Notes under the pieces: model-generated
What the model saw: the letters and a program-made list of their open reading frames with translations, nothing else
What the model was told of the DNA's origin: nothing
The model's database searches: none
Made by a program: the position numbers and the translations under genes
NCBI GenBank assembly: GCA_043797125.1
Contig: JAZDPX010000033.1
Location: 34,527 to 98,526 of the forward strand
DNA length: 64,000 nucleotides
Direction: 5' to 3'
Origin: Candidatus Omnitrophota bacterium
GTDB lineage: Bacteria > Omnitrophota > Gorgyraeia > JABMRG01 > JAFGKX01
Shown here: piece by piece, positions 31,205 through 47,870 of the stretch
Layout of the letters: each line of letters opens with the position of its first letter
Position numbering within the stretch: position 1 is the stretch's first letter

Positions 31205-31207
31205 ACA

Positions 31208-31903
31208 CTATCTTTTTAACAAAGCTTCTGCAAGTTTGAAATCCGTCATATCGTCTATCTCTATTGATCTTTCCTTAGGCATAATATAAGCGTAAGTTTG
31301 CCTGCCATAGTAACTTTTGTGCTTTTTGATATAATCTGCAAAGCCTAAAAATATAGCGCCGTTTAGTTGGAAAAATTTCGGCAAATACTGCGAATTTTTA
31401 CCTCTTACGCTTCTGGGAAGAAAATCTTTCAGGCATCCATCGGGAGGCAAAATATTCATCCACATGGGGTGGTGAAAAGCCTCGCAAATGGATATTATTG
31501 CCTTTGCCTTTTTTTTGAACAAAAATTCAACAGCATCGTCTATGTCTTTGCTCGTCCTAAAGGGACACGGAGGCTGCAATATAACCGCAATATCAAAACA
31601 TATGCCTTTTTTTTCGTAAAACTTCAGGGCGTGAACAACAACATCAAAAAGTGGCACCTCATCACCGGAAAGGTCCCGCGGTCTCATAAACGGGACTTCC
31701 GCATTATACCCGCGGGCGACTTTAGCAATCTTCGGGCTATCAGTGCTTACTATTATTTTGTCCAAATATTTGCTCTTTTTTGCCTGCTCTATGGTCCGAC
31801 CGATCAGGGGCTTACCCAATAAAGGCTTTATATTTTTATAAGGCAGCCTTTTGCTGCCGCCTCTTGCGGGAATCACGGCTAATATGCTTTTGCTCTTATA
31901 CAT
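31208..31903 (-). CDS. CMP-nonulosonic/ulosonic acid synthetase family (NeuA/PseF/KdsB-like cytidylyltransferase)
   Basis: ILAVIPARGGSKRLPYKNIKPLLGKPLIGRTIE...IVSTDS is the NeuA family signature. Confidence 0.7.
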   Translation of the reverse strand: MYKSKSILAVIPARGGSKRLPYKNIKPLLGKPLIGRTIEQAKKSKYLDKIIVSTDSPKIAKVARGYNAEVPFMRPRDLSGDEVPLFDVVVHALKFYEKKGICFDIAVILQPPCPFRTSKDIDDAVEFLFKKKAKAIISICEAFHHPMWMNILPPDGCLKDFLPRSVRGKNSQYLPKFFQLNGAIFLGFADYIKKHKSYYGRQTYAYIMPKERSIEIDDMTDFKLAEALLKR

Positions 31904-31918
31904 AACTTTTACCCCGGT

Positions 31919-33202: not shown

Positions 33203-33218
33203 TATATGATTTCCTTTT

Positions 33219-34319
33219 TTAAGAAATCTTATCCCAGGTTATCCCTTCTTCTTCTTTTATATCAACATTTGCTTTTCTTCCGATAAGCATATCAAAAAAT
33301 TTCGGATACAGTCCGTCTCCGGATCTTTTACAGGTAATCATATCTTTTTTAAGAACGGTTCCTTTTAAGATGTTTCGGCTGGCAACGACCTTTCTCCTGC
33401 CATATAAATAAGCCCCTTTTTCTTCGGGCAGCAAAGTCCTGATATACGAACCCAGACAAACTTCCGCTTCTCTTATATTTTTTACCATCTGCTTTAGGTC
33501 TTGCGCATCAACAGATATGGCGTGGTCTGAGGTGCCGGTTAATGTTTTGTCCACTGTATAATGTTTCTCTATTAATTTGGCTCCCAAAGAAGCCGCTATA
33601 GCCGGAATATTAATTCCGAGCGTGTGGTCCGAAAATCCTATCGGATAATCCGGAAATAATTTCTGCAGGCTTCGGATAAAATTCAAATTAGCTATTTTTG
33701 CGCTAGCCGGATAGGCGACTATACAATGCAAAGGAATAAGCCGGTCGTTTCCGGATGATTTCATCGCCTCTATCGCTTCTTCTATCTCCCCGATACTGCA
33801 CATGCCTGCCGAAAAGGCAACGGGCCTGCCTTTCTTGGCCACATATTTTAAAAAAGGTATGTTTGTCAGGTCTGTTGCAGCCAGTTTATACAAAGGGATA
33901 TCGAGTTCCTCCAAAAAATCCGCATTTTCATAATCAAACGGCGTGGAAAAGAATATTATTCCCTTTTTCCTGCAATAGCCGGCTATCTGCCTAAACTCAT
34001 CCTTGGTCAATGATTTTTCCTGCTTGTATTTCTTTAACTGTGAAGTCCCGCCTTTTTTATCAACCCAAAAAAATGGCACTGTCTTTGTTACGAGCTTCTT
34101 TGGGTCATAATGCTGAAATTTGATGGCATCTGCTCTTGCCTTGAGTGCGCCGTCAACCAATTTCTTAGCAAGCTCCAAACTGCCCTCGTGGTTGCAGCCT
34201 GCTTCAGCTACGATAAAAGCAGGGCAACCTTCTCCTATAAATTTATCCGCTACTTTAATTTTTTTCATTTCTAATCTCCAATACGGCATCAATAATTCTG
34301 TCAACGCCTTCACCGTCAA
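33219..34319 (-). CDS. N-acetylneuraminate synthase family (NeuB/PseI/LegI-like) with C-terminal SAF domain
   Basis: FIVAEAGCNHEGSLELAKKLVDGALKARADAIKFQ TIM-barrel signature. The likely true start is M18 (about 34268). Confidence 0.8.
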   Translation of the reverse strand: MTVKALTELLMPYWRLEMKKIKVADKFIGEGCPAFIVAEAGCNHEGSLELAKKLVDGALKARADAIKFQHYDPKKLVTKTVPFFWVDKKGGTSQLKKYKQEKSLTKDEFRQIAGYCRKKGIIFFSTPFDYENADFLEELDIPLYKLAATDLTNIPFLKYVAKKGRPVAFSAGMCSIGEIEEAIEAMKSSGNDRLIPLHCIVAYPASAKIANLNFIRSLQKLFPDYPIGFSDHTLGINIPAIAASLGAKLIEKHYTVDKTLTGTSDHAISVDAQDLKQMVKNIREAEVCLGSYIRTLLPEEKGAYLYGRRKVVASRNILKGTVLKKDMITCKRSGDGLYPKFFDMLIGRKANVDIKEEEGITWDKIS

Positions 34320-35516: not shown

Positions 35517-36884
35517 TTAATCTCCTTTTTTGTTTAATAACGCCTCTACTGCCTTTAACAGGCGTTGTGAATACCGCGCGTCGTCATTGTATACGACATG
35601 CTTTATATCATCCTTAATTTTCCTTTCTGCCTTCGGGTCATTCGTAAACTCCACAAGTTTTCTGCAATCGTCAATAAAACTGCCTCTGTCGCTACTGACT
35701 ATAAAATGCATCTTTTTAATATAATTAAACTGTTCCCAGTTGCATCGCCTGCCCATAGAAGAAAAGCTGTCAGAGATATCATCATCAAAACCTATGCCTA
35801 AGCTGGGCTTGCCGTAGATGAACAATTCTACAATAATGGTTGATAACGGCGTAATCATGCAATCAATGCCGTTATATAGGCTGACATAATCCGTCATTTT
35901 CGGCATTACTGTCTTTGGCGTAAGGTTTATGTTCTTCTCTTTGGCATGCATGTACGCCTCTTTAACCGACTCGTCAAATGTCACATTCTTAAACCCAACA
36001 TCGAAAAAGGATTTCTCCTGCGGCCTTTTTTCTCTCCACGGATGCGGCCTGTAAAAAATATGCACGCCGGTTAATCGTTTATCTTCTATCGCGTCGTCCA
36101 AATTTTTGAGTAGGGCTGTCTCATTAAACCTTCTTAGCGAACCGCCAAAAAGTATCACCTTTTTATCAAACGGTAAATTATTTTTCTCTCTGAATTCGGC
36201 TCTAAGGCTTTGAAGCTTGGTCCCATGCAATGAATCAAACAGGCACTGGTATTGAGGCGCACCCAAGACAGCGATACGGCTATTCTTCATTCCTAACATT
36301 TTTCTTGCGTAATATGCGTTCTGTTCTCCCCATACACCCATGTAATCCGGTTTTATGTACAGCAAAAGCTTCGTTGTAACATGATCCCAGCCTGAAGGAA
36401 TTGCCAGGCTTTTTATCTTCAGAATCTTGGCAATTTTTACAAAATCCAGCTCTGCCTTATCTGCCCTTGTGGTGGGCACTATTATCAGCTTAGGTTTTAC
36501 GGCTTCTATCTTCTTACACAACGCAATATCAGGTTTAACTATAAATTCCACCAGGGCTCTTAAAACCTCAAAAATAGGAGGCCATGAAAGTACTATCTTG
36601 ATAATTCTCGCTAATGTCCACGTCGTATTATGAAGCAGGCGGTAGCTGCTGGAATGCCTGGAGACCCTGATTATAAAAGCAGCTCTTACTAAAACCCGAA
36701 GCCTGGCATCTTTATAGGAAAAATCATGGGGTATAACGTTCTTTTTGTTTATCGGGACGCTGACTCTGTTTTTGTCAATAAGATAATACACATTATATTT
36801 TTTCTCAAGCTCATCCAACGCGCCGCTTTTAATAAAATCTCTTATTATTAAATTGCTTACAACATAAAATACAATATTTTCCAT
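35517..36884 (-). CDS. Hypothetical 455-aa soluble protein, possible nonulosonic-acid transferase / GT-B-like
   Basis: No diagnostic motif. Its position between NeuB-module genes suggests a transferase. Confidence 0.3.
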   Translation of the reverse strand: MENIVFYVVSNLIIRDFIKSGALDELEKKYNVYYLIDKNRVSVPINKKNVIPHDFSYKDARLRVLVRAAFIIRVSRHSSSYRLLHNTTWTLARIIKIVLSWPPIFEVLRALVEFIVKPDIALCKKIEAVKPKLIIVPTTRADKAELDFVKIAKILKIKSLAIPSGWDHVTTKLLLYIKPDYMGVWGEQNAYYARKMLGMKNSRIAVLGAPQYQCLFDSLHGTKLQSLRAEFREKNNLPFDKKVILFGGSLRRFNETALLKNLDDAIEDKRLTGVHIFYRPHPWREKRPQEKSFFDVGFKNVTFDESVKEAYMHAKEKNINLTPKTVMPKMTDYVSLYNGIDCMITPLSTIIVELFIYGKPSLGIGFDDDISDSFSSMGRRCNWEQFNYIKKMHFIVSSDRGSFIDDCRKLVEFTNDPKAERKIKDDIKHVVYNDDARYSQRLLKAVEALLNKKGD

Positions 36885-36902: not shown

Positions 36903-38297
36903 TTAGTGCCTGACGCCCCTGAAGGTTGCGTCTTTTTCATAATAAAGTTTTCTGTGCGCCTCAATGTGTTTCTTCGCAACATGTTGGAAATGGTCTTTGA
37001 CCAAAATCTGATTAGACTCATATAATATATCGTAGAGTTCGCCCTCTTGTAATTGCGTAAAGTTGCACGCGAACAAATCGGAATTCAGGTGCTTATTTTC
37101 ATAAAAATCCTCACAGTCCTTAATAAGCCCCTTTTTAAGCGCCAGATAATACAAGGGTGAGCCGGGATAGGGCGTAACCGGTTTTAACGTGCGCAGCTCG
37201 CCATAGGTATTGTATTTTCTTAAAAATTCCACGGTCTTTGCCGCAGTCTCCCTGTTATCCCCTACATTTCCAAAAATTACATTAAGCCCGGGGTTAATAC
37301 CGCTTTTTATTGTCGCCTCTATGCCGGTTATAATCTCGTCTGTAGTCTGCATCTTGTTCATTTTATCCAAAACATCCTGGTCTAAAGATTCAATACCATA
37401 ATTTATGTACACGCATCCGGCCCTTTTTAATAATTTTAACAGGTCTAGACGCGCGACGCTTAAGCGTCCGTCAATGTCAAAATGTATGTTGAGCTTTTCT
37501 TTGATAATGCGTTCGGCAAATTCCGAGGCGCGGCGCACAGACGACATTAATAACTCATCGCGAAAACAAATGGCGTTAATGTGGTAATCCTTGATCAGCC
37601 TCTTGCACTCTTCCATCACATTATCTAAAGACCGCATGCGGTAGCCCGGCTCCATGCGGTAACAAAATGCGCACTTATGCGTGCACCCGCGGCTGGTGAT
37701 TACCGGCATTGACCTCTGGCTTCTTCCTACGGGGATGCGTATTTTAGCGACATAGTTTTCTATTGGGAATCTATCCCACGCGGGAAAAGGCACAGAATCC
37801 AAATCCTGAATCGGCTTCTGTCTTTCGGTAGTAACTATCTTGCCTGCAAATGAATATGCTAGCCCCGGGATATCTTGGCAGCTTTTATTATCAGAAAGCT
37901 TCCTGATAAGCGCAAGGAAACTCCTCTCTCCTTCTCCTAATACAATATAGTCTGCCTCAAATTTTTTAATAAAGAATTCCGGTTCCGGGGTAAACATGTA
38001 TCCGCCCAGTATTATCTTTGGCCTTTTTTTAAGCCTGTTTACAGCAGCCATCATGCGTTTGAACTGTTCATACTGCCAGTAACCCGCTATCATGCCTATG
38101 CAGACAGCGTCAAAATCATTAACCTTAAGATACTCAAAAAGCTCTTCATCGCTATGATGATACACATCCATATTTAAAAGGTGTATGTCCGCGTCATTGA
38201 ATCCGTCCTGCCTAAGCACGGAAATGAGATAACCGATGCCTAAAGGAAAATCGTTCAGCGAAGCGTCGTTATCGTAAATAAGAAATACGAGTTTCAT
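36903..38297 (-). CDS. B12-binding (class B) radical SAM enzyme
   Basis: TSRGCTHKCAFCYR cluster after an N-terminal B12-binding-like domain; 464 aa. Confidence 0.75.
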   Translation of the reverse strand: MKLVFLIYDNDASLNDFPLGIGYLISVLRQDGFNDADIHLLNMDVYHHSDEELFEYLKVNDFDAVCIGMIAGYWQYEQFKRMMAAVNRLKKRPKIILGGYMFTPEPEFFIKKFEADYIVLGEGERSFLALIRKLSDNKSCQDIPGLAYSFAGKIVTTERQKPIQDLDSVPFPAWDRFPIENYVAKIRIPVGRSQRSMPVITSRGCTHKCAFCYRMEPGYRMRSLDNVMEECKRLIKDYHINAICFRDELLMSSVRRASEFAERIIKEKLNIHFDIDGRLSVARLDLLKLLKRAGCVYINYGIESLDQDVLDKMNKMQTTDEIITGIEATIKSGINPGLNVIFGNVGDNRETAAKTVEFLRKYNTYGELRTLKPVTPYPGSPLYYLALKKGLIKDCEDFYENKHLNSDLFACNFTQLQEGELYDILYESNQILVKDHFQHVAKKHIEAHRKLYYEKDATFRGVRH

Positions 38298-40233
38298 TAT
38301 TTATGTTTACCTTTTCTAAAATACGCCTTGCAAGCGAGGAATGGTCAAGGGAGTGAAACTCAAGGGCCTCGGCAGGGCTCCCGCACGCCGGGTATCCTTC
38401 GATTGCGAATTTTTCAAATATCTTTATATTCAAATCTTTCAACTTGATAATGGCGTTTAGCAGTTTATCCCCGAGCGCGCCGTAGCCGCTGTGATTATCC
38501 AGCACAAAAACCGCATCATGTTTATTAATAATTTTTTTAAGCCAGCTTTCACTTACAAGGTTAATCCACGGCATGTTCACAACTTCAAGCGAAAAACCTT
38601 TTTTGCGCAGAAGTCCGGCCGCCAATAATGCCTCATGCAGCATAACAGGGCCGTAGGCAAAAATTACAGCGTCGTTTCCCGCCTCTAAGATGCATCCCTC
38701 TCCGGGAACAAGGCTGTAGTTTTCGGGTAAAATAATTTTGCCCGGAGAAGGCGATATCGCCAGCCTGATCATACATGTCTTATCGGTCTTGCTAGCGCAC
38801 CAGTTAAGCGCAAGCCCGGTCTCAAGCGCATTGCAGGGTTCCATTATTACACAATTTGGCAAAGCGCCGAACAGCGAGATGTCTCGCAGGCTTTGATGCG
38901 ACTTGCCCGGGCCCGCCGGGATTAATCCCGCATAGTGGCATACATATATTATTTTTGTCCCTTCGGTCGCGTTTGTATAAATCTGTTCATTTGCCCTTGA
39001 AGACAAAAACACGCCGAAAGAATTTACAATAGGCAAAAACCCGGCAAGCGCCAATCCGCCGGCCATTGAGACCATGTCCTGCTCGGCAATGCCATTTTCA
39101 ATAAATCTCTCGGGAAATTTTAATTCAAATTCGCGCAAGCCGCAATCTTGGGCTAAATCCGCGTCTAAAACAACGATATCCTGCCTTGAGTTTCCTAAAT
39201 CAACCAGGGCCTCGCTATAAGCATTTACCACTTTTTCAGCCGAGTCTTTGAACCTTTTTTTATTTTTCTGGTTTTCCTGCGCAACTTCAAGCGCTGCTTC
39301 GCCCAAAGCGTATTTAGTAAATGCGCTGTCTATCCTGTTGATAATTTCATTAAAGGCAAGTTCGTAGCTATCATCATCCGGAGCGCCTGAATGCCATTTA
39401 TACACGCCGTTTCCGTTTTTTAGAGCGGCAGGCCCTTCCATAAACGAAACCCCCTTGCCCTTAACTGTATCAGCTATTATGATTTTTGGTTTTTTCTTTA
39501 CGCTGCCTAGTTTTGCCAACGCTTCATTCATCTTCACAAAATCGTGCCCGTCACAGGCTTGAACATGCCAACCAAATGCCCTGAATTTTTCCTCCAGGTT
39601 AGACAGGCTGATTATCTGCTGCGTTAATTTGTCTGTTTGTATCTTATTAAAATCCACGATAACAGTAACGTTGGTTATGCCTTGGTGAGCTGTAGTCTGC
39701 AGAGACTCCCATATCTGGCCTTCCTGCAGTTCGCCGTCTCCGGTTAAGACAAAGACCCTGCCTTTATTCTTGTTTAATTTTTTAGCGAATGCCATGCCTT
39801 TTGCCTTTGAGATTCCCATCCCAAGGGAGCCGGCATTGGCCTCTATGCCCGGAATTTTTACATCCGGATGCCCGTCTAATCCGCCAAGGCGCCTGAGGTT
39901 GAGCAGTTTGTCATAATCAATTATCCCTGCCGCAAAAAATACGCAATAAAGACCCGGGCAATCATGGCCTTTAGAGGAAAAGAAAATATCCCTGTCCGGA
40001 TTATTCAGGCCGGAGCTTAAAGTATTCATATGGCAAAAATACAGCATAATAAATATATCCATCGAGCTAAAGCTTGAGCCAAGATGCCCTGAACCTGCTT
40101 TTTTAACGCAGCTCAACGCGTTAAGCCTGCACATATCGCTTAGGATTTTGAGCTTTTCAAATTTCTCTATGCCGGAATTGCGTACGCGCTCAAATTCTTT
40201 ATATGGTATGAATTTTATTTTTATAGTGGCCAT
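38269..40233 (-). CDS. Transketolase, single-chain (N- plus C-terminal halves fused)
   Basis: GSGHLGSSFSSMDIF and GDGELQEG ThDP motifs, plus C-terminal pyrimidine-binding and TKC domains; 654 aa. Confidence 0.8.
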   Translation of the reverse strand: MATIKIKFIPYKEFERVRNSGIEKFEKLKILSDMCRLNALSCVKKAGSGHLGSSFSSMDIFIMLYFCHMNTLSSGLNNPDRDIFFSSKGHDCPGLYCVFFAAGIIDYDKLLNLRRLGGLDGHPDVKIPGIEANAGSLGMGISKAKGMAFAKKLNKNKGRVFVLTGDGELQEGQIWESLQTTAHQGITNVTVIVDFNKIQTDKLTQQIISLSNLEEKFRAFGWHVQACDGHDFVKMNEALAKLGSVKKKPKIIIADTVKGKGVSFMEGPAALKNGNGVYKWHSGAPDDDSYELAFNEIINRIDSAFTKYALGEAALEVAQENQKNKKRFKDSAEKVVNAYSEALVDLGNSRQDIVVLDADLAQDCGLREFELKFPERFIENGIAEQDMVSMAGGLALAGFLPIVNSFGVFLSSRANEQIYTNATEGTKIIYVCHYAGLIPAGPGKSHQSLRDISLFGALPNCVIMEPCNALETGLALNWCASKTDKTCMIRLAISPSPGKIILPENYSLVPGEGCILEAGNDAVIFAYGPVMLHEALLAAGLLRKKGFSLEVVNMPWINLVSESWLKKIINKHDAVFVLDNHSGYGALGDKLLNAIIKLKDLNIKIFEKFAIEGYPACGSPAEALEFHSLDHSSLARRILEKVNINNETRISYLR

Positions 40234-40978
40234 ATGGTTTATAGTTAACGACTGGCAGAACCGCCTTCTTATGCTTAATCATGTGCTCTGCCATGTGCCA
40301 ATCTTCTTCATAATCAAGTGAAAAGCCTTCCGCGCCCTCCGTAAAAAACGGGGTTATTATCTTCCCCTCGCGGGAATTGTACAAACGCACTACTTTAGTC
40401 CAGGCGATCTCCAGGGAGCTGTTTTGCACATAAACCTTTGGCAGCGCCTGATATTGCCCTGCATGCCATGCGACCTTAAGGTGAGACTGATCGAGAAGCG
40501 GCTTCATAAATTTCCCCTTTACAACCCACATCTTCCCAGGGTGCTGGTGGCATAATTCAACCGCGCGCAATGAATGCGCATTTTTTATGCCTATAAACTG
40601 CTGCCATGCGCGCCGGATAGTGGCTGCGCTGCGAAACGGGCTGCTTGAGCGAAGGATGCTGAAACAATCGTAACCGCAGCCTGCCTTTGATAAGGCGTGC
40701 CTTAGCCATTCAATGTCAGGCGAGACAGAAGTTGCAAACTTCTTCGGCCTTAAGAAAGGCGCTTCGGCCCCGTAATATAACGCCACCTGGCGTATTTCCT
40801 CGGAATCCGTGGAAACTATAATTTTGTCAAAAATACCGCTTGCAGAAGCTGCTGCTATCGTGTATGCGATTAAAGGGTGGCCTGCCAGCGGTTTTATGTT
40901 TTTGCGCAAAATACGAATTGAGCCGGAACGCGCAGGGATTAAAGCCAATACTTTATATTTTTTTTGCCTGGATTTCAT
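40199..40978 (-). CDS. CMP-nonulosonic/ulosonic acid synthetase family cytidylyltransferase (second paralog)
   Basis: VLALIPARSGSIRILRKNIKPLAGHPLIAYTI...IVSTDS. Confidence 0.75.
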   Translation of the reverse strand: MKSRQKKYKVLALIPARSGSIRILRKNIKPLAGHPLIAYTIAAASASGIFDKIIVSTDSEEIRQVALYYGAEAPFLRPKKFATSVSPDIEWLRHALSKAGCGYDCFSILRSSSPFRSAATIRRAWQQFIGIKNAHSLRAVELCHQHPGKMWVVKGKFMKPLLDQSHLKVAWHAGQYQALPKVYVQNSSLEIAWTKVVRLYNSREGKIITPFFTEGAEGFSLDYEEDWHMAEHMIKHKKAVLPVVNYKPYGHYKNKIHTI

Positions 40979-41885
40979 TTATTATTCTTTCAATAGTCGG
41001 GCACCTTAAGTTATGGCGCGAACCTATTCTCACGATTGAGCCGGCTACGGCATCAAGTTCCGACGGGTTACCTAAAGCTATATCGCGCTGCGTAGATGTT
41101 GTTACGTCAAAAGGTATTGAATCTATTTTAGCCATCGCATCATCTGTGTTTACCGTTGCGCCTTCGGCAGAGGCAACTGCAACTGCCTCCTGCACGCACT
41201 GCAGCAATTGTTTACGCCAGGCCTTCTGTGACCTGACCTGGCCGACTGTCTTTTTGCTTGCTGCGGTTGTGCATGCCATGGCGCCAAGCCGCACTAGCTT
41301 TTCCCAAAGCACGTCAGCTTCCGTCTTAAGCACTTCTGTTTTAACGCCGATATATGAAAGGAGTTTTGCGGCTTCATTTATGCGTTTTCTCGCCAAATTA
41401 TCCCGGGAAGCCATTTTTATCATCGCAGATGCGGTGGTATGAATAATATGACTGGCAGATACCCTTTTAACCTCGATGCTGCCTATGCTTGCCGCAATAA
41501 CATGTTTGCCGTAGCGAGACCTAAGCAGCTGCATGTGTTCTATGCCATTCAGCAACGGAATTATCACGGCATTGCTTATAAACTTCGGTTTGACCCTTGC
41601 CAAAGCCTGCTTAAGCGATATCGCCTTTGTTGTGATAAAGAGCATATCCGGTTTAAAATTGAGCCGAGTAATAACTTTGGGCCTTGCTGTAAAGTTTCCG
41701 AAAAAAGAGCTCTCCAGCCTTATGCCTTCTTTTGAAATTATCTTTTTGGCGCTTTCTCTTGCAATGCATACAACATCGATACCGTTATGCCAAAAAAGCG
41801 CGGCCAAAAAACCGCCGATTGCGCCCGGCCCAAGAATAGCTACTCTTTTATTCTTAATATTATTTTTTAGGCCACGGGTGCTCAC
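40953..41885 (-). CDS. 2-dehydropantoate 2-reductase family (PanE/ApbA-like NAD(P)H oxidoreductase)
   Basis: VAILGPGAIGGFLAALF N-terminal Rossmann motif; 310 aa. Confidence 0.6.
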   Translation of the reverse strand: MSTRGLKNNIKNKRVAILGPGAIGGFLAALFWHNGIDVVCIARESAKKIISKEGIRLESSFFGNFTARPKVITRLNFKPDMLFITTKAISLKQALARVKPKFISNAVIIPLLNGIEHMQLLRSRYGKHVIAASIGSIEVKRVSASHIIHTTASAMIKMASRDNLARKRINEAAKLLSYIGVKTEVLKTEADVLWEKLVRLGAMACTTAASKKTVGQVRSQKAWRKQLLQCVQEAVAVASAEGATVNTDDAMAKIDSIPFDVTTSTQRDIALGNPSELDAVAGSIVRIGSRHNLRCPTIERIINEIQAKKI

Positions 41886-43038
41886 GCATCACCTTTTCGT
41901 TTAAATCCAAACCCCAGCCGGGTTTATCGCTAAGAAACAGGGAGCCGTTCTTTATTTCAGGGACAGAGCTAACAAGCTCATCTTTCCATGGAACATCATC
42001 AACATCCACTTCAAGAATTTTGACATTAGGAATTGAAGCGCAAAAATGCGCGCTAATCATAGTCGAAAGATGGCTGTAATAATTGTGCGGCGCCGTATTC
42101 ATTTCATAGATCTCAGCCATATCAGCTATTTTTTTCGATTGCGAAAAACCGTTCCAAATCACATCTATCATTGCCACATCCATGGCATGAAGGTCAAAAA
42201 ACGGGCGAAAGCCCCTATTTGTATATAAATTCTCGCCAGAGCAGATAGGCACCCTTGCGGAATTCTTAACCTGCAATAACGCGTCCGGGTCATATGTATC
42301 TATCTCAAGCCACATAAGATTAAAGGGCTCCATTGCCTTTGCTATAAGAATGTTGCCCTCGGTTTTAAAATTGAAATTCAGATCAAGGCATATGCCGATA
42401 TCTTCACCTGCTGCTTTTCGGAATGTCTTGATAAGCGATTCTAAATTTTTTATCATGCTCTTTGTAACATCCTGGTCAGTGGTCCCGTATCCGCCGCCGA
42501 ATCCCTGCATCATGACCTCAGGCTTGTCGCCCAGGATGACAACGTTTGTCTTTAAAGCCTTAAAGCCTCTCTTTACGACCTCTTTACCTAACATGGCAAC
42601 ATCATCAAGCGTGCGCAAAGGCTTTTCCCCGACCATGTGCGCTGCCCTGGCGCGCGTAGTACCGCAATGAGACCAGTAAACGGGTATTTCTTTACGCAAA
42701 GGCCCGCCGAAAAGTTCATACACAGGAACGCCCAGCGCTTTTGCCTTTATATCAAGTGCGGCGTTTTCTATGCCGCCTATAGCCTTTTGTATTATGCTAC
42801 CCGGGCTCTGACGGGTCTGCCTATACATATCCCAGTAAAGTTTCTCCGTAGCGCGCGGATCCTGGCCAATAAGCAGACTTTCTAAGTCCTTAACAACGCC
42901 GCCGATACCCCTTGGAGAGCCATGGGAATCCGTGCACTCGCTGTAGCCGGTAATTCCATTGTCTGTTGTTATTTTAATAAATATCCATGGCCGCCAACCT
43001 GCGTCGCAATATAAGGTCTCAACTTTTTTTATTTTCAT
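41860..43038 (-). CDS. Enolase-superfamily (mandelate racemase/muconate lactonizing) sugar-acid dehydratase-like
   Basis: KIKKVETLYCDAGWRPWIFIKITTDNGITGYSE N-terminal capping domain plus barrel domain; 392 aa. Confidence 0.7.
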   Translation of the reverse strand: MKIKKVETLYCDAGWRPWIFIKITTDNGITGYSECTDSHGSPRGIGGVVKDLESLLIGQDPRATEKLYWDMYRQTRQSPGSIIQKAIGGIENAALDIKAKALGVPVYELFGGPLRKEIPVYWSHCGTTRARAAHMVGEKPLRTLDDVAMLGKEVVKRGFKALKTNVVILGDKPEVMMQGFGGGYGTTDQDVTKSMIKNLESLIKTFRKAAGEDIGICLDLNFNFKTEGNILIAKAMEPFNLMWLEIDTYDPDALLQVKNSARVPICSGENLYTNRGFRPFFDLHAMDVAMIDVIWNGFSQSKKIADMAEIYEMNTAPHNYYSHLSTMISAHFCASIPNVKILEVDVDDVPWKDELVSSVPEIKNGSLFLSDKPGWGLDLNEKVMREHPWPKK

Positions 43039-43041
43039 GTT

Positions 43042-44532
43042 TTATTCCTTTTTTTCAAACTGGACATTCTGGATCTTCGCGCTGTAATCTACATAGAGAG
43101 TTTTGACCTCGGTAAATGCCTCGATAGCTGACCAGCCTGCTTCCCGAAAACCTAACCCTGAATTCTTAATTCCCCCGAACGGCATGTGCGGCTCAGACCC
43201 AAAGGTGGGCGCATTTATGTAACAAACGCCGGCTTCTGCGTCATCAAAGAAGGAAAACGCCTTGTTCACGTCTTGAGTAAAAAGCGAGGCAGAAAGCCCG
43301 TATAAAGAATCGTTGTGTATTTTAACGGCATCTTCGTATGAAGATGCCTTAAATAAAACTAATACAGGGCCGAATACTTCTTCTCTTGCAATTTCCATAT
43401 CCGGCGTTACGTTTTCTATAATAGTGGGTTCTATATAATAACCTTTATCATACACGCCGCCTTTAAGCTTGTTTCCTCCCGTCACTATCTTTGCGCCTTT
43501 ATTTTTGGCGCGCTCAATAAACCCTAACGCTCTATCCAGCTGCTTCTTGCTGATTAACGGCGTTATATCTGATGAATCGTCAGAGCCCGGCCCTATTTTC
43601 TGTTTTTTGGTCTTGCTGCATAAGCTTTTCTTAAATTTAGCATATATATCCTTATGTATAATGGCGCGGCCCGTAGATGTGCACCTTTGGCCTGATATAG
43701 AAAACGCTCCGCAGATTATCCCGTCTACCGCAAGGCCTATATCAGCGTCATCCATCACTATTACGGCGTTTTTTCCGCCAAGCTCCAAGGAAACCTTGGC
43801 TAATCTTGCTGCGCAGTTTTTACCTATTATTTTGCCGACTGCGCTGGAACCGGTAAAAGAAACCATGGAAACATCGGGATGCAAAGTTAAGGCCTCCCCG
43901 GCTTCCTGGCCAAAACCATGAATAAGATTCAAAACGCCTTTCGGCAGGCCTGCCTCTTCTAATATTTCCGCAAAATGCACTGCTGTCTGCGGCGTGTTTT
44001 CTTCGGATTTCAAAACCACTGTATTGCCGCATAAAAGCGCGGGAAGGGTTTTCCAGCACGCAATTGCCATCGGAAAATTCCAGGAGGTTATTATTCCCAC
44101 AACCCCGACAGGATATCTTTTGGTCATGGTGAATCTTTTTTTAAGGCCGGAATGAGAAGTCCTCCCGTATAATCTTCTTCCCTCGCCGGCTGCAAAATAT
44201 GCCATGTCAATTCCCGATTGAACGTCTCCCATGGCGCCTTTAACAGTCTTACCGTTTTCCCTTGAAATAATCTGCGCAAGTTCTTTTTTGCGTGAAGCCA
44301 TGATGCTTCCGGCTTCATACAGAATGTTGGCCCTTTCAGCAGGCGGAATATTTTTCCAAAAACTAAATGCCGCAAGCGCCGCGCAAACAGCATTATCCAC
44401 ATCTTTTTTTTCCGAGCGGGGGAAAACCCCTATTGCCTCGTTTATATCGGACGGATTCATTTTGGTGAATGTCTCGCCGGAAACCGAATCCACCCACTTG
44501 CCGTTAATATAATTCTTAAAAGTTTTAGTCAT
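43042..44532 (-). CDS. NAD(P)-dependent aldehyde dehydrogenase
   Basis: ELGGKNAVIV and the catalytic Cys in GQRCTSTGR; 496 aa. Confidence 0.8.
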   Translation of the reverse strand: MTKTFKNYINGKWVDSVSGETFTKMNPSDINEAIGVFPRSEKKDVDNAVCAALAAFSFWKNIPPAERANILYEAGSIMASRKKELAQIISRENGKTVKGAMGDVQSGIDMAYFAAGEGRRLYGRTSHSGLKKRFTMTKRYPVGVVGIITSWNFPMAIACWKTLPALLCGNTVVLKSEENTPQTAVHFAEILEEAGLPKGVLNLIHGFGQEAGEALTLHPDVSMVSFTGSSAVGKIIGKNCAARLAKVSLELGGKNAVIVMDDADIGLAVDGIICGAFSISGQRCTSTGRAIIHKDIYAKFKKSLCSKTKKQKIGPGSDDSSDITPLISKKQLDRALGFIERAKNKGAKIVTGGNKLKGGVYDKGYYIEPTIIENVTPDMEIAREEVFGPVLVLFKASSYEDAVKIHNDSLYGLSASLFTQDVNKAFSFFDDAEAGVCYINAPTFGSEPHMPFGGIKNSGLGFREAGWSAIEAFTEVKTLYVDYSAKIQNVQFEKKE

Positions 44533-44552
44533 ATAAACCTCTCCTGCCGCAA

Positions 44553-45374
44553 TTACCAGCAGCTATATCCGCCGTCAATAACCAGGTTAGACCCTGTCAT
44601 ATAGGAAGACGCGTCTGACGCTAAAAATACTACTGCCCCGTTGTATTCATCTTCCCTGGCCATTCTTGCCATGGGCAGCTTTTTAGTGTAATTTTTCAGG
44701 AATCTTGTATCCTGATTATTGAAAACTCCGGCAAATGTTAAGGTGTTCACGCGCACATTAAAATCCGCCCAGTATGCGGCCAGATACCGGGTTAAATTAA
44801 GCACGCCTGATTTAGATACGCTATAAGCTACGGGCTTGTAGAATGCCCTCCCCTTTTTCCTTCTGTATTCATATATCCTCTGGTCAGGAGAAAGTAGTCC
44901 GTATATAGAAGAGATATTTATAACGGATCCTCTTTTTAATTTCGCCATCTCTTTGCCTATAATTTGGGAGCACAAAAATACGCCTTTTAAGTTGGCGTCC
45001 ATCACCTTGTCCCATGAAGATTCAGGATATTCTTCAAAAGGGCCGTTTTCTTCATAAGGGGCATCCGGCGCAGAATCTATGGCTGCGTTATTAATAAGAA
45101 TATCGGGGCTGCCAAAACTGCTTTTGGTCTTCTCTAAGGCGCCCTTTATCGAGTCCGGCTTTGTTACGTCGGCGTAAAAACATTTTATTTTGCCATTATC
45201 TATATATTTTTTTATTACGCCCGGGATATTTTTTGTTTTTATATCAAATATAGCAACCTTTGCCTGCCTTTGAGCCAAGACAAGAGAAAACTGGACGCCA
45301 AGCTGCCCCAAGCCTCCTGTCACCACAGCTATTTTTCCTTTAAGAGAAAATATATCTTTTTTATTTTGTGGCAT
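44553..45374 (-). CDS. Short-chain dehydrogenase/reductase
   Basis: GKIAVVTGGLGQLG and NNAA motifs; 273 aa. Confidence 0.75.
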   Translation of the reverse strand: MPQNKKDIFSLKGKIAVVTGGLGQLGVQFSLVLAQRQAKVAIFDIKTKNIPGVIKKYIDNGKIKCFYADVTKPDSIKGALEKTKSSFGSPDILINNAAIDSAPDAPYEENGPFEEYPESSWDKVMDANLKGVFLCSQIIGKEMAKLKRGSVINISSIYGLLSPDQRIYEYRRKKGRAFYKPVAYSVSKSGVLNLTRYLAAYWADFNVRVNTLTFAGVFNNQDTRFLKNYTKKLPMARMAREDEYNGAVVFLASDASSYMTGSNLVIDGGYSCW

Positions 45375-45376
45375 GC

Positions 45377-45889
45377 TTACCGCCTTTTTTCAGATTTCAC
45401 ATTATAAATAAGGTCGCACAGTTCCCTGACAGCCCCGCTGCCGCCGTTTCTTTCTGTTTTAACCAGGACAATCTTATCAAGTTCCGGATGGCAATCGGAA
45501 ACTGCCGTTGGCAGGCCGACGCTTTTCAAACACTCTATATCGTTTATATCGTTTCCCAAAAAGGCGGTTTCCTTCAAGCTTATTGAGCATTCCTTTGCTA
45601 CTTTTAATAGCGCCTTTAGTTTGTCCGGACAATTGTGCACGCAGGGGATTTTGAGCTTTTCGCTTCTTTTTATAACCAGCGGGTTCGGTTCGCTGGATAT
45701 TATACAGGTTTTAATTCCAAGGTTTCTTATTCTTTCAAGCCCTATGCCGTCACTTCTATTGCAGGCTACCGATTCTTTGCCTTCTTCGTTTATAAAGACA
45801 CGGTTATCTGTAAACACACCATCAAAATCAAATGCTATTAATTTTATCGAAAGAACCTTTTGTTTTAAGGAGGAATTTAATTTCATCAT
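45377..45889 (-). CDS. HAD-superfamily KdsC-family sugar-acid phosphate phosphatase (Kdo-8-P / Kdn-9-P phosphatase-like)
   Basis: LIAFDFDGVFTDN DxD motif and the KdsC-type 170-aa capless architecture. Confidence 0.75.
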   Translation of the reverse strand: MMKLNSSLKQKVLSIKLIAFDFDGVFTDNRVFINEEGKESVACNRSDGIGLERIRNLGIKTCIISSEPNPLVIKRSEKLKIPCVHNCPDKLKALLKVAKECSISLKETAFLGNDINDIECLKSVGLPTAVSDCHPELDKIVLVKTERNGGSGAVRELCDLIYNVKSEKRR

Positions 45890-46923
45890 TCTAAATCCTC
45901 TAAGCTAAGCACGTAGTCTTCGGGCAAATCCTTAATTGTTTTACGGCCTATTATTTCACCGGCTTTAAAAGGAGGTATTCCGCCGCCCGGGCTTTTAAAG
46001 AGAATGTCGTCAGCTTTGATAACAGAGTTTCTTCCAAGAGAGCGCCTGGTCACTATGCTTTTGGCCATTTTCATCATAGGGTCTTTTTCGGTATCGAAAA
46101 TCCTCTTTACCGGGCTTCCCAGAGAAGCGTTGACCCTTCTTAAATCCCTGATTACTTTTCTCATGCCTGCCGGTTCGAGCGAAAATTTATGGTCGGTTCC
46201 CTTCATTGTGCGGTTGAGGGTAAAATGCTTTTCGATTATTCTGGCGCCCAACAAATAGGCTATTATCGGCGCTAATATGCCGGTATCATGGCCTGAATAT
46301 CCGATAATTGCTTCCGGAAACTCTTTCTTGTATGTTGCTACTACATTTAAGTCTAATTCATCGTACTCGGCAGGATACGCTGTGGTGCACTGCATTACGC
46401 AAACCTGGTCATTGTGCTTTCTGATGGTTTCATATGCCCGCCTTACATCATCCAGGGTGCTTGAACCTGTCGAAAATATTACTGGCTTTTTAGTTTTCGC
46501 TATCTCTTCAATAAGCGGTATGGTCCGTATATCAGCTGACGCTATTTTATGTAAGGGCACGCCCAGGCGTTCCAGAAAATCCAAGCTCTGAAAATCAAAA
46601 GCTGTCGCAAAAAAAATAAGCCCGAGCGCTTCGGCATATTTTTTTAATTCAATATATTCATCCAGCCCGAATTCCAAAAATTCCCTGTGTTCGCCATATG
46701 TTGAGCCGAAACTGTTCTCGTTGTCATATGGCTTTGCATACATGCTTTTGATGTACAGGTTCTTTACGTCTCTTTTCTGCAATTTAACCGCATTGACCCC
46801 GCAGGCGGCAGCCTCTTTCATCAGGCTTTTTGCAACATCAACACTTCCCTGGTGATTGTGGCCTATCTCTGCTATAACAAAGCACTCGGAATTAACATCT
46901 ATTATATAATCTTTGATTTTCAT
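45886..46923 (-). CDS. N-acetylneuraminate synthase family (NeuB-like, second paralog) with SAF domain
   Basis: CFVIAEIGHNHQGSVDVAKSLMKEAAACGVNAVKLQ. A strong AAGGGG RBS lies 6 nt upstream of the ATG. Confidence 0.8.
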   Translation of the reverse strand: MKIKDYIIDVNSECFVIAEIGHNHQGSVDVAKSLMKEAAACGVNAVKLQKRDVKNLYIKSMYAKPYDNENSFGSTYGEHREFLEFGLDEYIELKKYAEALGLIFFATAFDFQSLDFLERLGVPLHKIASADIRTIPLIEEIAKTKKPVIFSTGSSTLDDVRRAYETIRKHNDQVCVMQCTTAYPAEYDELDLNVVATYKKEFPEAIIGYSGHDTGILAPIIAYLLGARIIEKHFTLNRTMKGTDHKFSLEPAGMRKVIRDLRRVNASLGSPVKRIFDTEKDPMMKMAKSIVTRRSLGRNSVIKADDILFKSPGGGIPPFKAGEIIGRKTIKDLPEDYVLSLEDLE

Positions 46924-46972
46924 GTTTACCCCTTTACAATTAAAGTCCTTTTTACCTATTAATTAGATAGTA

Positions 46973-46998
46973 TTATACATATAGAGCTAAATGTCAAT
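46973..46998 (-). promoter_or_regulatory. Candidate sigma70-like promoter (TTGACA-N14-TGTATAAT) in the only >100-bp intergenic gap
   Basis: Minus-strand TTGACA at 46998..46993 and TATAAT at 46978..46973 with an adjacent TG. It lies about 50 nt upstream of the NeuB-like ATG at 46923. The spacer is short at 14 nt. Confidence 0.3.
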
Positions 46999-47087: not shown

Positions 47088-47870
47088 TTAATCAGAATTG
47101 CATATCTTTTTCCTTGCCAGGACAAATAAGTCTGATCCAAAACCAGTAAAACCGAATATTCTTGTTAAAAAAAGGTCGAAACTATTGAAACATTTTTGTT
47201 TTCTTAGTTTTAGTTCCTTAAGATTGAATGGGTTGCGAACAAAAGATATTATATAGCACGCTAGCGCAATGGGTTTTATCACGCAGCGGGTAAATGTGCT
47301 TGAAATATTTATGCAAATTTCAAATCCTTCATCTTCTATTAATTCGGCGAATGTCTTTTTTGAAAAAAAGCGTATGTGGCCTAAATTGCTTCCGTAGGTA
47401 ATTTTTGTTCTAACGCCAAAAGGGTATAAAAATCTTGTCCGCAAGTCATACATATTAGGCACAGCCGCGATAAAATACCCTCTGGGCTTTAACACTCTCA
47501 TAATCTCAGATACGGTTTCGCTAGGATCCATAATGTGCTCTAGCGCCTGACAACAAGTCACAACATCAAATTTTGAATCCTCATAAGGCAGGCCTGCGTC
47601 AGCTGCTATCAGCTGCGCCTTAATTCCCTTTGCAATACATCTTTCAATTTTTTCCTTATGAATGTCTACGCCGTATACCTTATTTTCTTTAGAGAGAAAC
47701 GACCCTAAAAGCCCTTCTCCGCATCCGACATCGAGGATATCGAGATTTTTTCCTATCTTACTTATTTTATCCAGGATTATTCTAAAGGAAACTTCGGCGT
47801 AGTATGTATCCATCGTAGCCGGAGGGGCTTCAATGGTTGAGTCGTAATAATGTTTTTTATTCATAATCAA
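47088..47870 (-). CDS. Class I SAM-dependent methyltransferase
   Basis: ILDVGCGEGLLGSFL motif I. The ATG overlaps the upstream stop (47867..47870). Confidence 0.65.
   Translation of the reverse strand: MIMNKKHYYDSTIEAPPATMDTYYAEVSFRIILDKISKIGKNLDILDVGCGEGLLGSFLSKENKVYGVDIHKEKIERCIAKGIKAQLIAADAGLPYEDSKFDVVTCCQALEHIMDPSETVSEIMRVLKPRGYFIAAVPNMYDLRTRFLYPFGVRTKITYGSNLGHIRFFSKKTFAELIEDEGFEICINISSTFTRCVIKPIALACYIISFVRNPFNLKELKLRKQKCFNSFDLFLTRIFGFTGFGSDLFVLARKKICNSD

Follow-up and report, generated by a model that had tools for sequence, protein, structure and literature searches.

What would an operon that joins ulosonic-acid genes to a transketolase and several oxidoreductases make? The question arises in a 64,000-nt window (the whole stretch of DNA analysed) from a Candidatus Omnitrophota MAG, where eight intact, overlapping and tightly packed genes encode, from 5' to 3', a NeuB-like synthase, a KdsC-type phosphatase, an SDR, an aldehyde dehydrogenase (ALDH), an enolase-superfamily dehydratase, a PanE-like reductase, a CMP-transferase and a transketolase (Table 1). 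Because adjacent genes are spaced at -35 to +20 nt, we regard the eight as one operon. Its last two genes overlap by 35 nt at the transketolase start and are translationally coupled. All eight families had been named in an earlier sequence-only reading and were recovered with Pfam and NCBIfam profiles; the transketolase, which that reading placed between the NeuB, KdsC and NeuA-type genes, is actually the last of the eight, after the cytidylyltransferase. The reading's description of the cluster as a second module is borne out by a further NeuB gene and a further CTP_transf_3 gene downstream of the operon. Catalytic motifs are intact, including motif I of the HAD phosphatase (DFDGV), ELGGKN and the Cys in SGQRC of the ALDH, and TGGLGQLG and YSVSK of the SDR. 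The promoter-like site upstream of the NeuB gene is only a hint of a start site, as such sites are not clearly enriched in the region (42, against a shuffle mean of 32.2, sd 4.9). The window also abounds in tailoring enzymes (methyltransferases, MBOAT, radical SAM enzymes).

Table 1. The eight-gene operon (38269-46923) and neighbouring features, in window coordinates.
Feature	Position	Strand	Profile or remark
Promoter-like site, 164-nt gap upstream of the NeuB gene	46969-46997	-	TTGACA-17-AATACT, 10/12 matches
PEP-condensing ulosonate synthase of the NeuB family, opening the operon and ending in a SAF domain	45886-46923	-	Pfam NeuB, SAF
C0-type HAD phosphatase, KdsC / Kdn-9-P phosphatase family	45377-45889	-	TIGR01670
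Classical SDR	44553-45374	-	Pfam adh_short_C2
NAD(P)-dependent aldehyde dehydrogenase	43042-44532	-	Pfam Aldedh
Enolase-superfamily (mandelate racemase subgroup) acid-sugar dehydratase	41860-43038	-	Pfam MR_MLE_N, MR_MLE_C
PanE/ApbA-family 2-ketoacid reductase	40953-41885	-	Pfam ApbA, ApbA_C
CMP-ulosonate synthetase	40199-40978	-	Pfam CTP_transf_3
Single-chain, short (human/split-type) transketolase-family ThDP enzyme	38269-40233	-	Pfam Transketolase_N, Transket_pyr, Transketolase_C
B12-binding radical SAM enzyme	36903-38297	-	Pfam B12-binding + Radical_SAM
455-aa protein, no Pfam match	35517-36884	-	Candidate glycosyltransferase
Other NeuB	33219-34319		
Other CTP_transf_3	31208-31903		

The synthase matches Pfam NeuB at 267 bits and stays under the curated cutoffs for NeuB (298 vs 399.65) and PseI (224 vs 340); SpsE, NeuB and PseI structures are about equally distant from it, and by its profile scores it belongs to an unassigned clade closer to NeuB than to PseI. 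The phosphatase passes the KdsC-subfamily cutoff of TIGR01670 (114.7 against 106.95 bits) but not the equivalog cutoffs for KdsC (110 vs 208) or Kdn-9-P phosphatase (100.7 vs 180), with KdsC and BT1713-type proteins scoring alike among its PDB matches. The CMP-transferase is PseF-like at 122 bits, below the cutoff of 205.7. A NeuB-family synthase, a C0-type HAD phosphatase and a CTP_transf_3 enzyme also stand together in the Kdn cluster of Bacteroides thetaiotaomicron, whose pathway runs through Kdn-9-P synthase, the Kdn-9-P phosphatase BT1713 and CMP-Kdn synthetase. Unlike those enzymes, the three corresponding proteins here reach no curated equivalog cutoff, and the cassette has three enzymes that the Kdn pathway lacks (an SDR, an ALDH or aminotransferase, a transketolase), while dispensing with the phosphatase in two thirds of loci. 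The phosphorylated condensation route suggested earlier is plausible from the KdsC-subfamily match, though it would not be universal.

Comparison across genomes indicates that this grouping is a dedicated ulosonic-acid module, as had been proposed, rather than a chance neighbourhood. Among 62 non-redundant transketolase loci with enough flanking sequence, genes for ALDH, NeuB, SDR, CMP-transferase and phosphatase are present in 44, 41, 40, 39 and 21, respectively. NeuB homologues of 47-57% identity hold the same position in their 41 loci, and CMP-transferase homologues (50-59% identity) lie directly upstream of the transketolase in most. The order NeuB-(HAD)-SDR-ALDH-CMP-transferase-transketolase recurs in Thermodesulfobacteriota, Scalindua, Chloroflexota, Gemmatimonadota, Acidobacteriota, Actinomycetota, Melainabacteria, Patescibacteria, Verrucomicrobia and Proteobacteria; such recurrence in dozens of unrelated genomes goes far beyond chance. 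Transketolase, ALDH, SDR and CMP-transferase therefore co-travel with NeuB across phyla, the phosphatase doing so in about a third of loci, and the oxidoreductase block is not missing from syntenic relatives. The conserved set comprises only NeuB, HAD, SDR, ALDH or aminotransferase, CMP-transferase and transketolase; the dehydratase and PanE-like reductase are not core. Moreover, a 574-aa KpsC/KpsS-like (Capsule_synth) family accompanies the cassette in 17 loci, supporting use of its product as a CMP-donor. We found no description of this cassette in the literature that could be searched.

The nearest relatives of the SDR and ALDH suggest what they may act on. Best NCBIfam matches of the SDR, all below cutoff, are gluconate 5-dehydrogenase, GolD/DthD, D-mannonate oxidoreductase and KduD, secondary-alcohol dehydrogenases that all oxidise the hydroxyl adjoining a terminal CH2OH to give a ketol; we propose by homology that it oxidises the penultimate hydroxyl of the sugar acid. 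The ALDH (Pfam Aldedh, 563 bits) comes closest to alpha-ketoglutaric semialdehyde dehydrogenase (544 vs 770) and 2,5-dioxovalerate dehydrogenase (509 vs 750), families whose substrates are 2-keto-3-deoxy acids with a terminal aldehyde, and is proposed to convert a terminal aldehyde to a carboxylate. Three Bacteroidota loci (L021, L027, L032) carry a class-III aminotransferase in place of the ALDH, within an overlapping CMP-transferase-transketolase-aminotransferase-SDR-HAD-NeuB operon. Since two different aldehyde-consuming enzymes occupy one slot, these variants point to a common aldehyde intermediate. Weimberg and L-lyxonate-type catabolic routes likewise pair an enolase-superfamily aldonate dehydratase with alpha-ketoglutaric semialdehyde dehydrogenase, the families to which the MR-subgroup dehydratase and the KGSADH-like ALDH of the operon belong. 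In contrast to those routes, the cassette lacks a transporter, a lactonase, a sugar dehydrogenase and a 2-keto-3-deoxy-acid dehydratase; its genes sit inside an operon for a CMP-sugar, and the ALDH also accompanies cassettes that have no enolase-superfamily dehydratase.

The transketolase falls below all curated transketolase and DXS cutoffs (416.7 vs 488). Its best PDB matches are human transketolase (250 bits) and the Carboxydothermus split enzyme (185 and 130 bits), and it shares with these and E. coli TktA the fold, the ThDP motif (GDG..N), four catalytic His and the cofactor-activating Glu. Unlike canonical transketolases, the family is substituted throughout at the positions of human R318, S345, D424 and R474, which in one phmmer alignment to the human enzyme fall on V/N, an invariant D363, P442 and I/P. 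Three of the four canonical phosphate-ligand positions, which we take to be such from human, yeast and E. coli residue numbering, are substituted in the window's family, one by the invariant Asp. These residues are no proof of a non-phosphorylated substrate, because the same signature marks a stand-alone Ignavibacteriota clade and a split transketolase at locus L168 keeps the canonical Arg and Ser. Homologues of 44-69% identity anchor the cassette, and the L168 split enzyme, only 31-40% identical, fills the same slot. Given this replacement, the coupling to the CMP-transferase and a transketolase tree in which module linkage is ancestral, we consider the enzyme integral to the cassette.

From gene content, motifs, operon structure and the conservation of the cassette and its variants, we infer substrates, step order and product as follows, tentatively and with a probability of roughly 40%: the operon would make, for a surface glycan, a CMP-activated 3-deoxy-2-ulosonic acid with a modified side chain, trimmed by SDR, transketolase and ALDH to a second acid group. 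NeuB would condense PEP with a hexose-type aldose, probably a 6-phosphate, and the KdsC-type phosphatase would free the terminal hydroxyl, leaving a C9 3-deoxy-ulosonate of the Kdn/Neu5Ac stereochemical series. The SDR would oxidise the next-to-last hydroxyl (C8) to give a HOCH2-CO- ketol tail, which the transketolase is proposed to cleave, moving the two-carbon ketol onto an acceptor aldehyde and leaving a C7 aldehyde. Irreversible oxidation of this aldehyde by the ALDH would yield 3-deoxy-hept-2-ulosaric acid, a Dha-like diacid, and the cytidylyltransferase would form the CMP-sugar. The SDR and ALDH steps draw support from the fit of their nearest characterised families. Counted from C9, 8-keto-Kdn and 8-keto-Neu5Ac carry at their tail the (3S,4R) configuration of D-fructose on which transketolases depend; with a synthase that is NeuB-like rather than PseI-like, the transketolase step is stereochemically fitting. 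Counting against the proposal, an Anaerolineae clade has no SDR in its block (TylF-methyltransferase-NeuB-ALDH-CMP-transferase-transketolase).

A possible but doubtful alternative reverses the order of events, with the transketolase supplying NeuB with an unusual aldose phosphate, a tetrose or pentose phosphate, for condensation with PEP. Next, the phosphatase would free the terminal hydroxyl, the SDR would turn that primary alcohol into an aldehyde and the ALDH or aminotransferase would convert it, giving an ulosaric or amino-ulosonic acid whose carbon count is fixed before condensation. The same co-occurrence data fit this scheme, as do the phosphate-binding Arg and Ser kept at L168, and the aminoshikimate pathway, where the imino-erythrose-4-phosphate used by a PEP-condensing enzyme comes from a transketolase encoded in the cluster, offers a precedent. 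Yet the phosphatase would be obligatory, at odds with its presence in only 21 of the 62 loci; cells already make erythrose-4-P and ribose-5-P, so that a dedicated transketolase coupled to a CMP-transferase is hard to justify; and both the ketol-forming relatives of the SDR, which are not primary-alcohol oxidases, and the substituted phosphate-ligand positions of the window's transketolase family speak against it.

The earlier suggestions that the oxidoreductases and transketolase build the acceptor or an acyl group are less likely. Extension of an ulosonate, in which the transketolase would lengthen an SDR-made terminal aldehyde by a two-carbon ketol to reach a C10/C11 sugar acid, would suit a reversible enzyme with intact ketol-transfer residues; however, it leaves the conserved ALDH without a role and competing with the transketolase for the same aldehyde, and the Bacteroidota swap indicates an aldehyde that is the end point of the transketolase and SDR steps, consumed and not their input, making extension very improbable. 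Equally hard to credit is an ordinary nonulosonic acid decorated with an acidic acyl or ether group such as glycolyl or glyceroyl: the window's many tailoring enzymes and the transketolase-derived glycolyl units of quinocarcin-type pathways would accord with it, but the families co-travelling with the transketolase include no acyl-CoA ligase or other conserved acyl-activating enzyme, no carrier protein and no acyltransferase. Chance juxtaposition of an ordinary Kdn/Kdo trio with a housekeeping transketolase and genes of sugar-acid catabolism (dehydratase, KGSADH-like ALDH, SDR), for which the non-module dehydratase clade and the stand-alone transketolase clade might be cited, is already contradicted by the synteny data, with eight genes overlapping or at most 20 nt apart, the same set recurring across phyla, and the genes here including neither the transporter and lactonase nor the 2-keto-3-deoxy-acid dehydratase or aldolase that would mark a catabolic route.

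The evidence fits better with tailoring after condensation, by truncation and oxidation and then deoxygenation beside the new carboxylate. For this last step the window carries the dehydratase and reductase genes, inserted directly after the ALDH gene. The best structure match of the dehydratase is 2OO6 (371 bits), an entry without assigned function. Its closest relatives (66-79% identity) occupy transketolase/ALDH/CMP-transferase contexts, as do the Gaiellaceae loci; a separate clade at about 60% identity, large and spread through soil bacteria and plasmids, lacks the module. The reductase exceeds the TIGR00745 subfamily cutoff (179.9 against 141.35 bits), meets no equivalog cutoff, and adjoins the dehydratase elsewhere too (L038, L050-L053, L089, L091-L096, L109, L115, L132, L152). 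By this distribution the pair is accessory, marking a sub-variant (Gaiellaceae, several metagenome contigs). Enolase-superfamily enzymes require a proton alpha to a carboxylate; here the new carboxylate would let the dehydratase eliminate the hydroxyl next to it, and the 2-keto acid so formed would be reduced by the PanE-like enzyme, the net effect being one more deoxy position. Gene position after the ALDH and the transketolase cassettes of the closest relatives support this step. L105 and L108, however, combine the pair with NeuB and CMP-transferase and lack transketolase, ALDH and SDR, so the pair is not strictly dependent on an ALDH-made carboxylate.

The operon probably continues into the next two genes. 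The B12-radical-SAM gene overlaps the end of the transketolase gene by 29 nt. At L168 the cassette is followed by a homologue of 52% identity, and weaker ones occur at L004, L014 and L045; by this linkage its product is a probable extra tailoring enzyme of the same operon. The 455-aa protein has only three homologues in the protein database, and one of 34% identity stands directly after the cassette and radical SAM gene of L168. Its low-confidence model (pLDDT 62) weakly matches GT-B glycosyltransferases and UDP-GlcNAc 2-epimerases, making it a candidate glycosyltransferase for the new sugar. The two proteins would respectively modify and transfer the CMP-sugar.

Among known systems, in the Shewanella Kdo8N pathway KdnB oxidises C8 of Kdo to an aldehyde and KdnA transaminates it, so that there too the far end of a finished ulosonic acid is tailored through an aldehyde; of the cassette's forms, the Bacteroidota aminotransferase variant parallels this most closely. 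Kdo8N formation oxidises the terminal alcohol directly, whereas the cassette's aldehyde would come from ketol cleavage by SDR and transketolase, with two carbons lost, and its usual fate would be oxidation to a carboxylate. In its predicted class the product, a pyranose ulosonic acid bearing another carboxylate at C7, matches Dha (3-deoxy-D-lyxo-hept-2-ulosaric acid), which occurs in plant rhamnogalacturonan-II and in prasinophyte walls, although by our own derivation a Kdn-type precursor would give the L-arabino isomer. Published accounts still list both the biosynthetic route to Dha and its activated form as unknown (PMC3355719; PMC12168206). For the transketolase family itself, the dominant genomic context is the CMP-sugar cassette and not the pentose phosphate pathway.

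The window, from a Candidatus Omnitrophota MAG, is an island of glycan-biosynthesis genes, and all ORFs of at least 150 aa taken as genes in the 64 kb lie on the minus strand. The eight-gene module delineated by the sequence-only reading is borne out by profile matches, tight gene packing (intergenic gaps of -35 to +20 nt) and catalytic motifs that are intact in all eight proteins. Two details of that reading were revised: the transketolase (TK) gene comes last of the eight instead of being placed among the other genes, and a radical SAM gene and a gene for a 455-aa protein, adding about 2.8 kb downstream, probably belong to the operon too. The structure model of the 455-aa protein is of low confidence (pLDDT 62) and only suggestive of a GT-B fold. 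A 164-nt gap upstream of the NeuB gene contains a promoter-like site, on weak evidence.

Features of the window and of homologous loci from other genomes and metagenomes (L-numbers)
Feature	Sequence	Coordinates	Strand	Remarks
Eight-gene module: NeuB with SAF domain, KdsC-type C0 phosphatase (HAD), classical SDR, ALDH, MR-subgroup enolase-superfamily dehydratase (ENOL), PanE/ApbA reductase, CTP_transf_3 cytidylyltransferase (CMPt), single-chain TK	window	38269-46923	minus	Pfam/NCBIfam profiles
B12-binding radical SAM gene	window	36903-38297	minus	joined to TK gene at -29 nt
455-aa gene	window	35517-36884	minus	no Pfam match; +18 nt from radical SAM gene
814-aa protein	window	47867-50311		no Pfam match; two genes upstream of module NeuB gene
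Homologue of 814-aa protein	Gaiellaceae L038	~4336-6828		between ENOL and TK
Aminotransferase-variant cassette	uncultured Bacteroidota L021, L027, L032	~8100-15600 each
Split-TK cassette	L168	285-11401
ENOL-PanE-CMPt-NeuB locus	L108	7683-13994
Other nonulosonic module	window	25473-34319
NeuB of other module	window	33219-34319
CTP_transf_3 of other module	window	31208-31903
B12-binding radical SAM genes of other module	window	31919-33202; 29162-31204
Two proteins of other module	window	26117-29157		no Pfam match
HisH-like gene	window	25473-26099
HisF-like gene	window	24648-25460
Phosphonate-decoration genes	window	14333-20303
PEP mutase fused to NTP-transferase domain	window	18645-20303
ThDP decarboxylase	window	17503-18675		phosphonopyruvate decarboxylase-like
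CDP-alcohol phosphatidyltransferase-family genes	window	16763-17572; 14333-15019
Large membrane glycosyltransferase-like genes	window	12762-14498 and 52803-61542		four PMT_2-family, one YfhO-family
MBOAT gene	window	51333-52763

A comparative survey anchored on the window TK shows that the module belongs to a real and conserved cassette. Thermodesulfobacteriota, Scalindua, Dehalococcoidia and other groups carry homologues with 63-69% identity, in loci such as NeuB-SDR-ALDH-TK-CMPt-Capsule_synth-like in Thermosulfuriphilus ammonigenes, NeuB-SDR-ALDH-TK followed by flippase, methyltransferase and CMPt in Scalindua, and NeuB-HAD-SDR-ALDH-TK in one Thermodesulfobacteriota lineage. T. ammonigenes, a named species whose genome record is complete, is represented by a cultured isolate. 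Scanning one genome per GTDB species yielded at least 592 TK relatives, and the eight window proteins were compared by tblastn with the best 80 of these at least 592 loci, gene content of the high-GC Gaiellaceae loci being taken from tblastn. Among these 80, the order NeuB-(HAD)-SDR-ALDH-CMPt-TK recurs in delta-/gamma-proteobacteria, Chloroflexota, Gemmatimonadota, Acidobacteriota and Actinomycetota, and likewise in Melainabacteria, Parcubacteria, Saccharibacteria, Verrucomicrobia and Rickettsiales. In 62 non-redundant loci whose sequence reaches 6 kb or more upstream of TK, the partners are ALDH (44/62), NeuB (41/62), SDR (40/62), CMPt (39/62) and HAD (21/62); the ten loci lacking all five (10/62) are of the Ignavibacteriota stand-alone type. 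Clustering of neighboring ORFs added just one recurrent partner: in 17 loci (L001, L002, L004, L028, L030, L034 and 11 more), a KpsC/KpsS-like family of 574-aa proteins that matches Capsule_synth weakly and is plausibly a CMP-ulosonate transferase. The window holds no homologue of this family, so lineages appear to employ different transferases for the product. Taken as a whole, the cassette very probably serves a dedicated pathway to a CMP-activated ulosonic acid tailored via an aldehyde.

Natural variants of the cassette bear on this aldehyde. In Bacteroidota (L021, L027, L032), overlapping genes are arranged as unknown-CMPt-TK-class-III aminotransferase (AT)-SDR-HAD-NeuB and ALDH is absent. 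That one slot is filled by either an ALDH or an omega-type aminotransferase indicates a common aldehyde intermediate, and the Bacteroidota product is predicted to carry an amino end group instead of a carboxy group. Another variant, L168, reads DegT-NeuB-HAD-SDR-ALDH-split TK (two genes)-CMPt-methyltransferase-B12 radical SAM-466-aa protein, followed by an ABC transporter. Its split TK comes from a different lineage, with only 40% and 31% identity to the window TK, which argues that transketolase activity as such is what the cassette needs. Moreover, its radical SAM and 466-aa proteins are 52% and 34% identical to those encoded downstream of the window module, which points to the window's two downstream genes being members of an extended cassette. 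Elsewhere the set is reduced: in Acidobacteriota L079 and L085 only SDR-TK-ALDH remains as a block, and an Anaerolineae clade has no SDR inside the block.

The TK itself retains the three-domain architecture, the ThDP-binding GDG..N motif, the catalytic His and the cofactor-activating Glu (H50, H90, H122, H281; GDGELQEG...N196; E384). It scores below the curated transketolase cutoffs (NF004559, 416.7 vs 488; TIGR00232, 171 vs 682) and that for DXS (TIGR00204, 161.5 vs 466). In human TK, R318, S345, H416 and R474 bind the sugar phosphate, and the Asp D424 (yeast D477) recognizes the C2-hydroxyl of the acceptor. A phmmer alignment to human TK (3OOY) places V/N, D363 and I/P at the positions of R318, S345 and R474, and P442 at that of D424, a pattern shared by 85 family members; the H416 position is H433, or S/T in a second subfamily. 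These substitutions would fit a phosphate-free donor with the ring oxygen as C4-equivalent, although we do not lean on this. The missing phosphate ligands, at first sight strong evidence for a non-phosphorylated substrate, are given little weight, because stand-alone Ignavibacteriota TKs have the same active-site signature as module-linked TKs, and because in L168 the canonical Arg and Ser persist in the split TK. These Ignavibacteriota/Melioribacter stand-alone TKs (L023, L029, L031, L035-L037, L040-L042, L056, L058) are flanked by unrelated opposite-strand genes and might be the housekeeping enzyme of their hosts. A housekeeping role for the family as a whole was considered and dismissed, since in the TK tree the stand-alone enzymes form a single clade nested inside the module-linked ones; for the same reason we infer that cassette linkage is the ancestral and dominant context.

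Among the eight module proteins, only HAD and the PanE-like reductase reach curated cutoffs, both with subfamily models. The synthase combines a NeuB TIM barrel (PF03102, 267 bits) with a C-terminal SAF/antifreeze-like domain (PF08666, 26.7 bits), and stays under the NeuB (TIGR03569, 298.4 vs 399.65) and PseI (TIGR03586, 224.5 vs 340.25) equivalog cutoffs. HAD, whose gene overlaps that of NeuB by 4 nt, passes the KdsC-family C0 subfamily model (TIGR01670, 114.7 bits vs 106.95) and fails the equivalogs for Kdn-9-P phosphatase (NF058599, 100.7 vs 180) and KdsC (NF007019, 110.1 vs 208). The Bacteroides Kdn pathway thus resembles the module in synthase, phosphatase and CMP-transferase, but the module proteins miss every equivalog cutoff. 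PDB sequence searches with SDR, HAD and NeuB did not discriminate substrates.

Our preferred mechanism, to which we assign a probability of about 40%, is truncation of the sugar's side chain by SDR, TK and ALDH in turn, an order of steps suggested by the characterized enzymes to which these three additions to the core are most closely related. The top SDR models are gluconate 5-dehydrogenase, GolD/DthD, mannonate oxidoreductase and KduD, enzymes acting on sugars or sugar acids, where they oxidize the hydroxyl that adjoins the terminal CH2OH. Such an oxidation would create a HOCH2-CO- ketol, the transketolase donor motif; TK would then take off the two-carbon ketol unit, leaving an aldehyde. 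Of 45 ALDH models, the two best-scoring were alpha-ketoglutaric semialdehyde dehydrogenase (NF042993, 544.2 vs 770) and 2,5-dioxovalerate dehydrogenase (NF052305, 509.3 vs 750), with both cutoffs missed; these enzymes oxidize the far-end aldehyde of 2-keto-3-deoxy acids. ALDH would accordingly convert the far-end aldehyde to a carboxylate, so that the glycerol side chain of a Kdn/Neu5Ac-series acid made by NeuB becomes a C7 carboxylate. The outcome would be a 3-deoxy-hept-2-ulosaric acid with its pyranose ring kept and CMP-activation still possible. Its calculated mass is 222.2 Da (C7H10O8), against 268.2 Da for Kdn, and CMP would contribute about 305 Da more. Going by textbook configurations, the tail of 8-keto-Kdn, read from C9, shows the D-fructose (3S,4R) arrangement required by transketolases. 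On the same basis, the Kdn-derived product is predicted to be the L-arabino isomer, diastereomeric with 3-deoxy-D-lyxo-hept-2-ulosaric acid (Dha) of plant rhamnogalacturonan-II and prasinophyte walls. Kdo8N biosynthesis in Shewanella resembles the aldehyde logic of the cassette.

ENOL and PanE, whose genes sit straight after the window ALDH gene, lie outside the cassette core and define a sub-variant. Here, ENOL would use the new carboxylate to eliminate the adjoining hydroxyl and the PanE-like enzyme would reduce the resulting 2-keto acid, giving one added deoxy position (C7H10O7, calculated 206.2 Da). ENOL has both MR_MLE domains (PF02746, PF13378) and, judged by eye, candidate metal-ligand acidic residues D219, E245 and E269 in motif context. 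Its best characterized-dehydratase model, galactonate dehydratase NF010624, is below cutoff (162.7 vs 311). The nearest structure, 2OO6 (371 bits), has a title naming no function, and its single citing paper is a methods paper. The PanE-like protein is likely a 2-ketoacid reductase, passing subfamily TIGR00745 (179.9 vs 141.35) and missing all equivalogs (best 152.4 vs 252). The pair accompanies ALDH-CMPt-TK in Gaiellaceae loci (L038, L050-L054, L047), and in a metagenome scan anchored on ENOL the closest relatives of this protein (66-79% identity, L088-L096) lie inside the cassette, for example NeuB-SDR-ALDH-PanE-CMPt-ENOL-TK in L092, with similar orders in L109, L115, L132 and L152. A separate soil ENOL clade (~60% identity) has unrelated neighbors; neither the non-module neighbors (SDR with Zn-ADH, cyclase, luciferase-like) nor plasmid homologues offered a substrate clue. 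L105 and L108 present a third manner of pairing ENOL-PanE with a NeuB enzyme, ENOL-PanE-CMPt-NeuB without TK, ALDH or SDR; there, methyltransferase-HAD_2-methyltransferase precede this block, and a TagF-like Glyphos_transf protein and an aldo-keto reductase follow. The window's 814-aa protein has one homologue among the fetched loci (45% identity over 806 aa), and may belong to the sub-variant, for example as its transferase. Weimberg-type catabolism matches the module in its dehydratase and ALDH families, but the remaining catabolic genes are absent: neither a 2-keto-3-deoxy-acid dehydratase, a lactonase nor a transporter of that type is among the window's genes.

The same synteny could also arise if TK supplied NeuB with a special aldose phosphate and the terminal carbon were oxidized by SDR and ALDH; such a supply role has a precedent in the aminoshikimate pathway. 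We consider this unlikely: the patchy HAD phosphatase would become obligatory, SDR would have to oxidize a primary alcohol, and a dedicated, translationally coupled TK would have no rationale. Chain extension by TK is far less probable, as it leaves ALDH without a role, and synthesis of an acyl substituent by the oxidoreductases and TK is equally improbable, given that no acyltransferase accompanies them. Chance juxtaposition, the least credible of all, is contradicted by the synteny.

The module has a G+C content of 0.45-0.46 (window 38001-44000) vs 0.37-0.44 in its flanks. The nearest relatives of its ALDH, TK, NeuB and SDR are in Thermodesulfobacteriota-type cassettes, those of CMPt in Gaiellaceae-type cassettes, and those of ENOL and PanE in dehydratase-bearing metagenome cassettes, with Gaiellaceae next. 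The higher G+C and the differing relatives of its parts suggest a mosaic, horizontally assembled operon. Elsewhere in the window, another nonulosonic module includes its own NeuB, CTP_transf_3 and two B12-binding radical SAM genes; with the radical SAM gene next to TK, an unusual three such genes are packed into 9 kb of sugar genes. HisH-like/HisF-like pairs, one of which is found here, make acetamidino groups on legionaminic or pseudaminic acids. Additionally, genes for phosphonate decoration are present, and the module's glycan may also bear a phosphonate group. Large membrane glycosyltransferase-like genes and an MBOAT gene complete the island.

Ulosonic acids, among them Kdo and the sialic, pseudaminic and legionaminic acids, are key determinants of the cell surface, and their pathways are regarded as well mapped. 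To our knowledge, no known ulosonic-acid route includes the three enzymes that the cassette adds, and Dha biosynthesis has been unsolved since the 1980s. Reviews from 2012 and 2025 still list its biosynthesis and activated form as unknown (PMC3355719, PMC12168206). Full-text searches of the searchable literature turned up neither an account of a NeuB-transketolase cassette nor a paper on bacterial heptulosaric-acid biosynthesis. The cassette occurs widely among environmental and candidate phyla, and its ALDH/aminotransferase and single-chain/split TK variants are ready-made experimental controls. More tentatively than the truncation itself, we propose that a TK-family enzyme was recruited to nucleotide-sugar synthesis, where SDR, TK and ALDH or AT would trim the glycerol side chain of a C9 ulosonic acid, yielding a new CMP-activated heptulosaric/7-amino-heptulosonic class in more than 10 phyla and possibly giving Dha-type sugars their first enzymatic route. 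Should the truncation model hold, the cassette would define a new sugar class, a transketolase would take on carbon-carbon cleavage of a finished sugar acid as a new role, and heptulosaric acids would have a concrete, testable enzymatic route.
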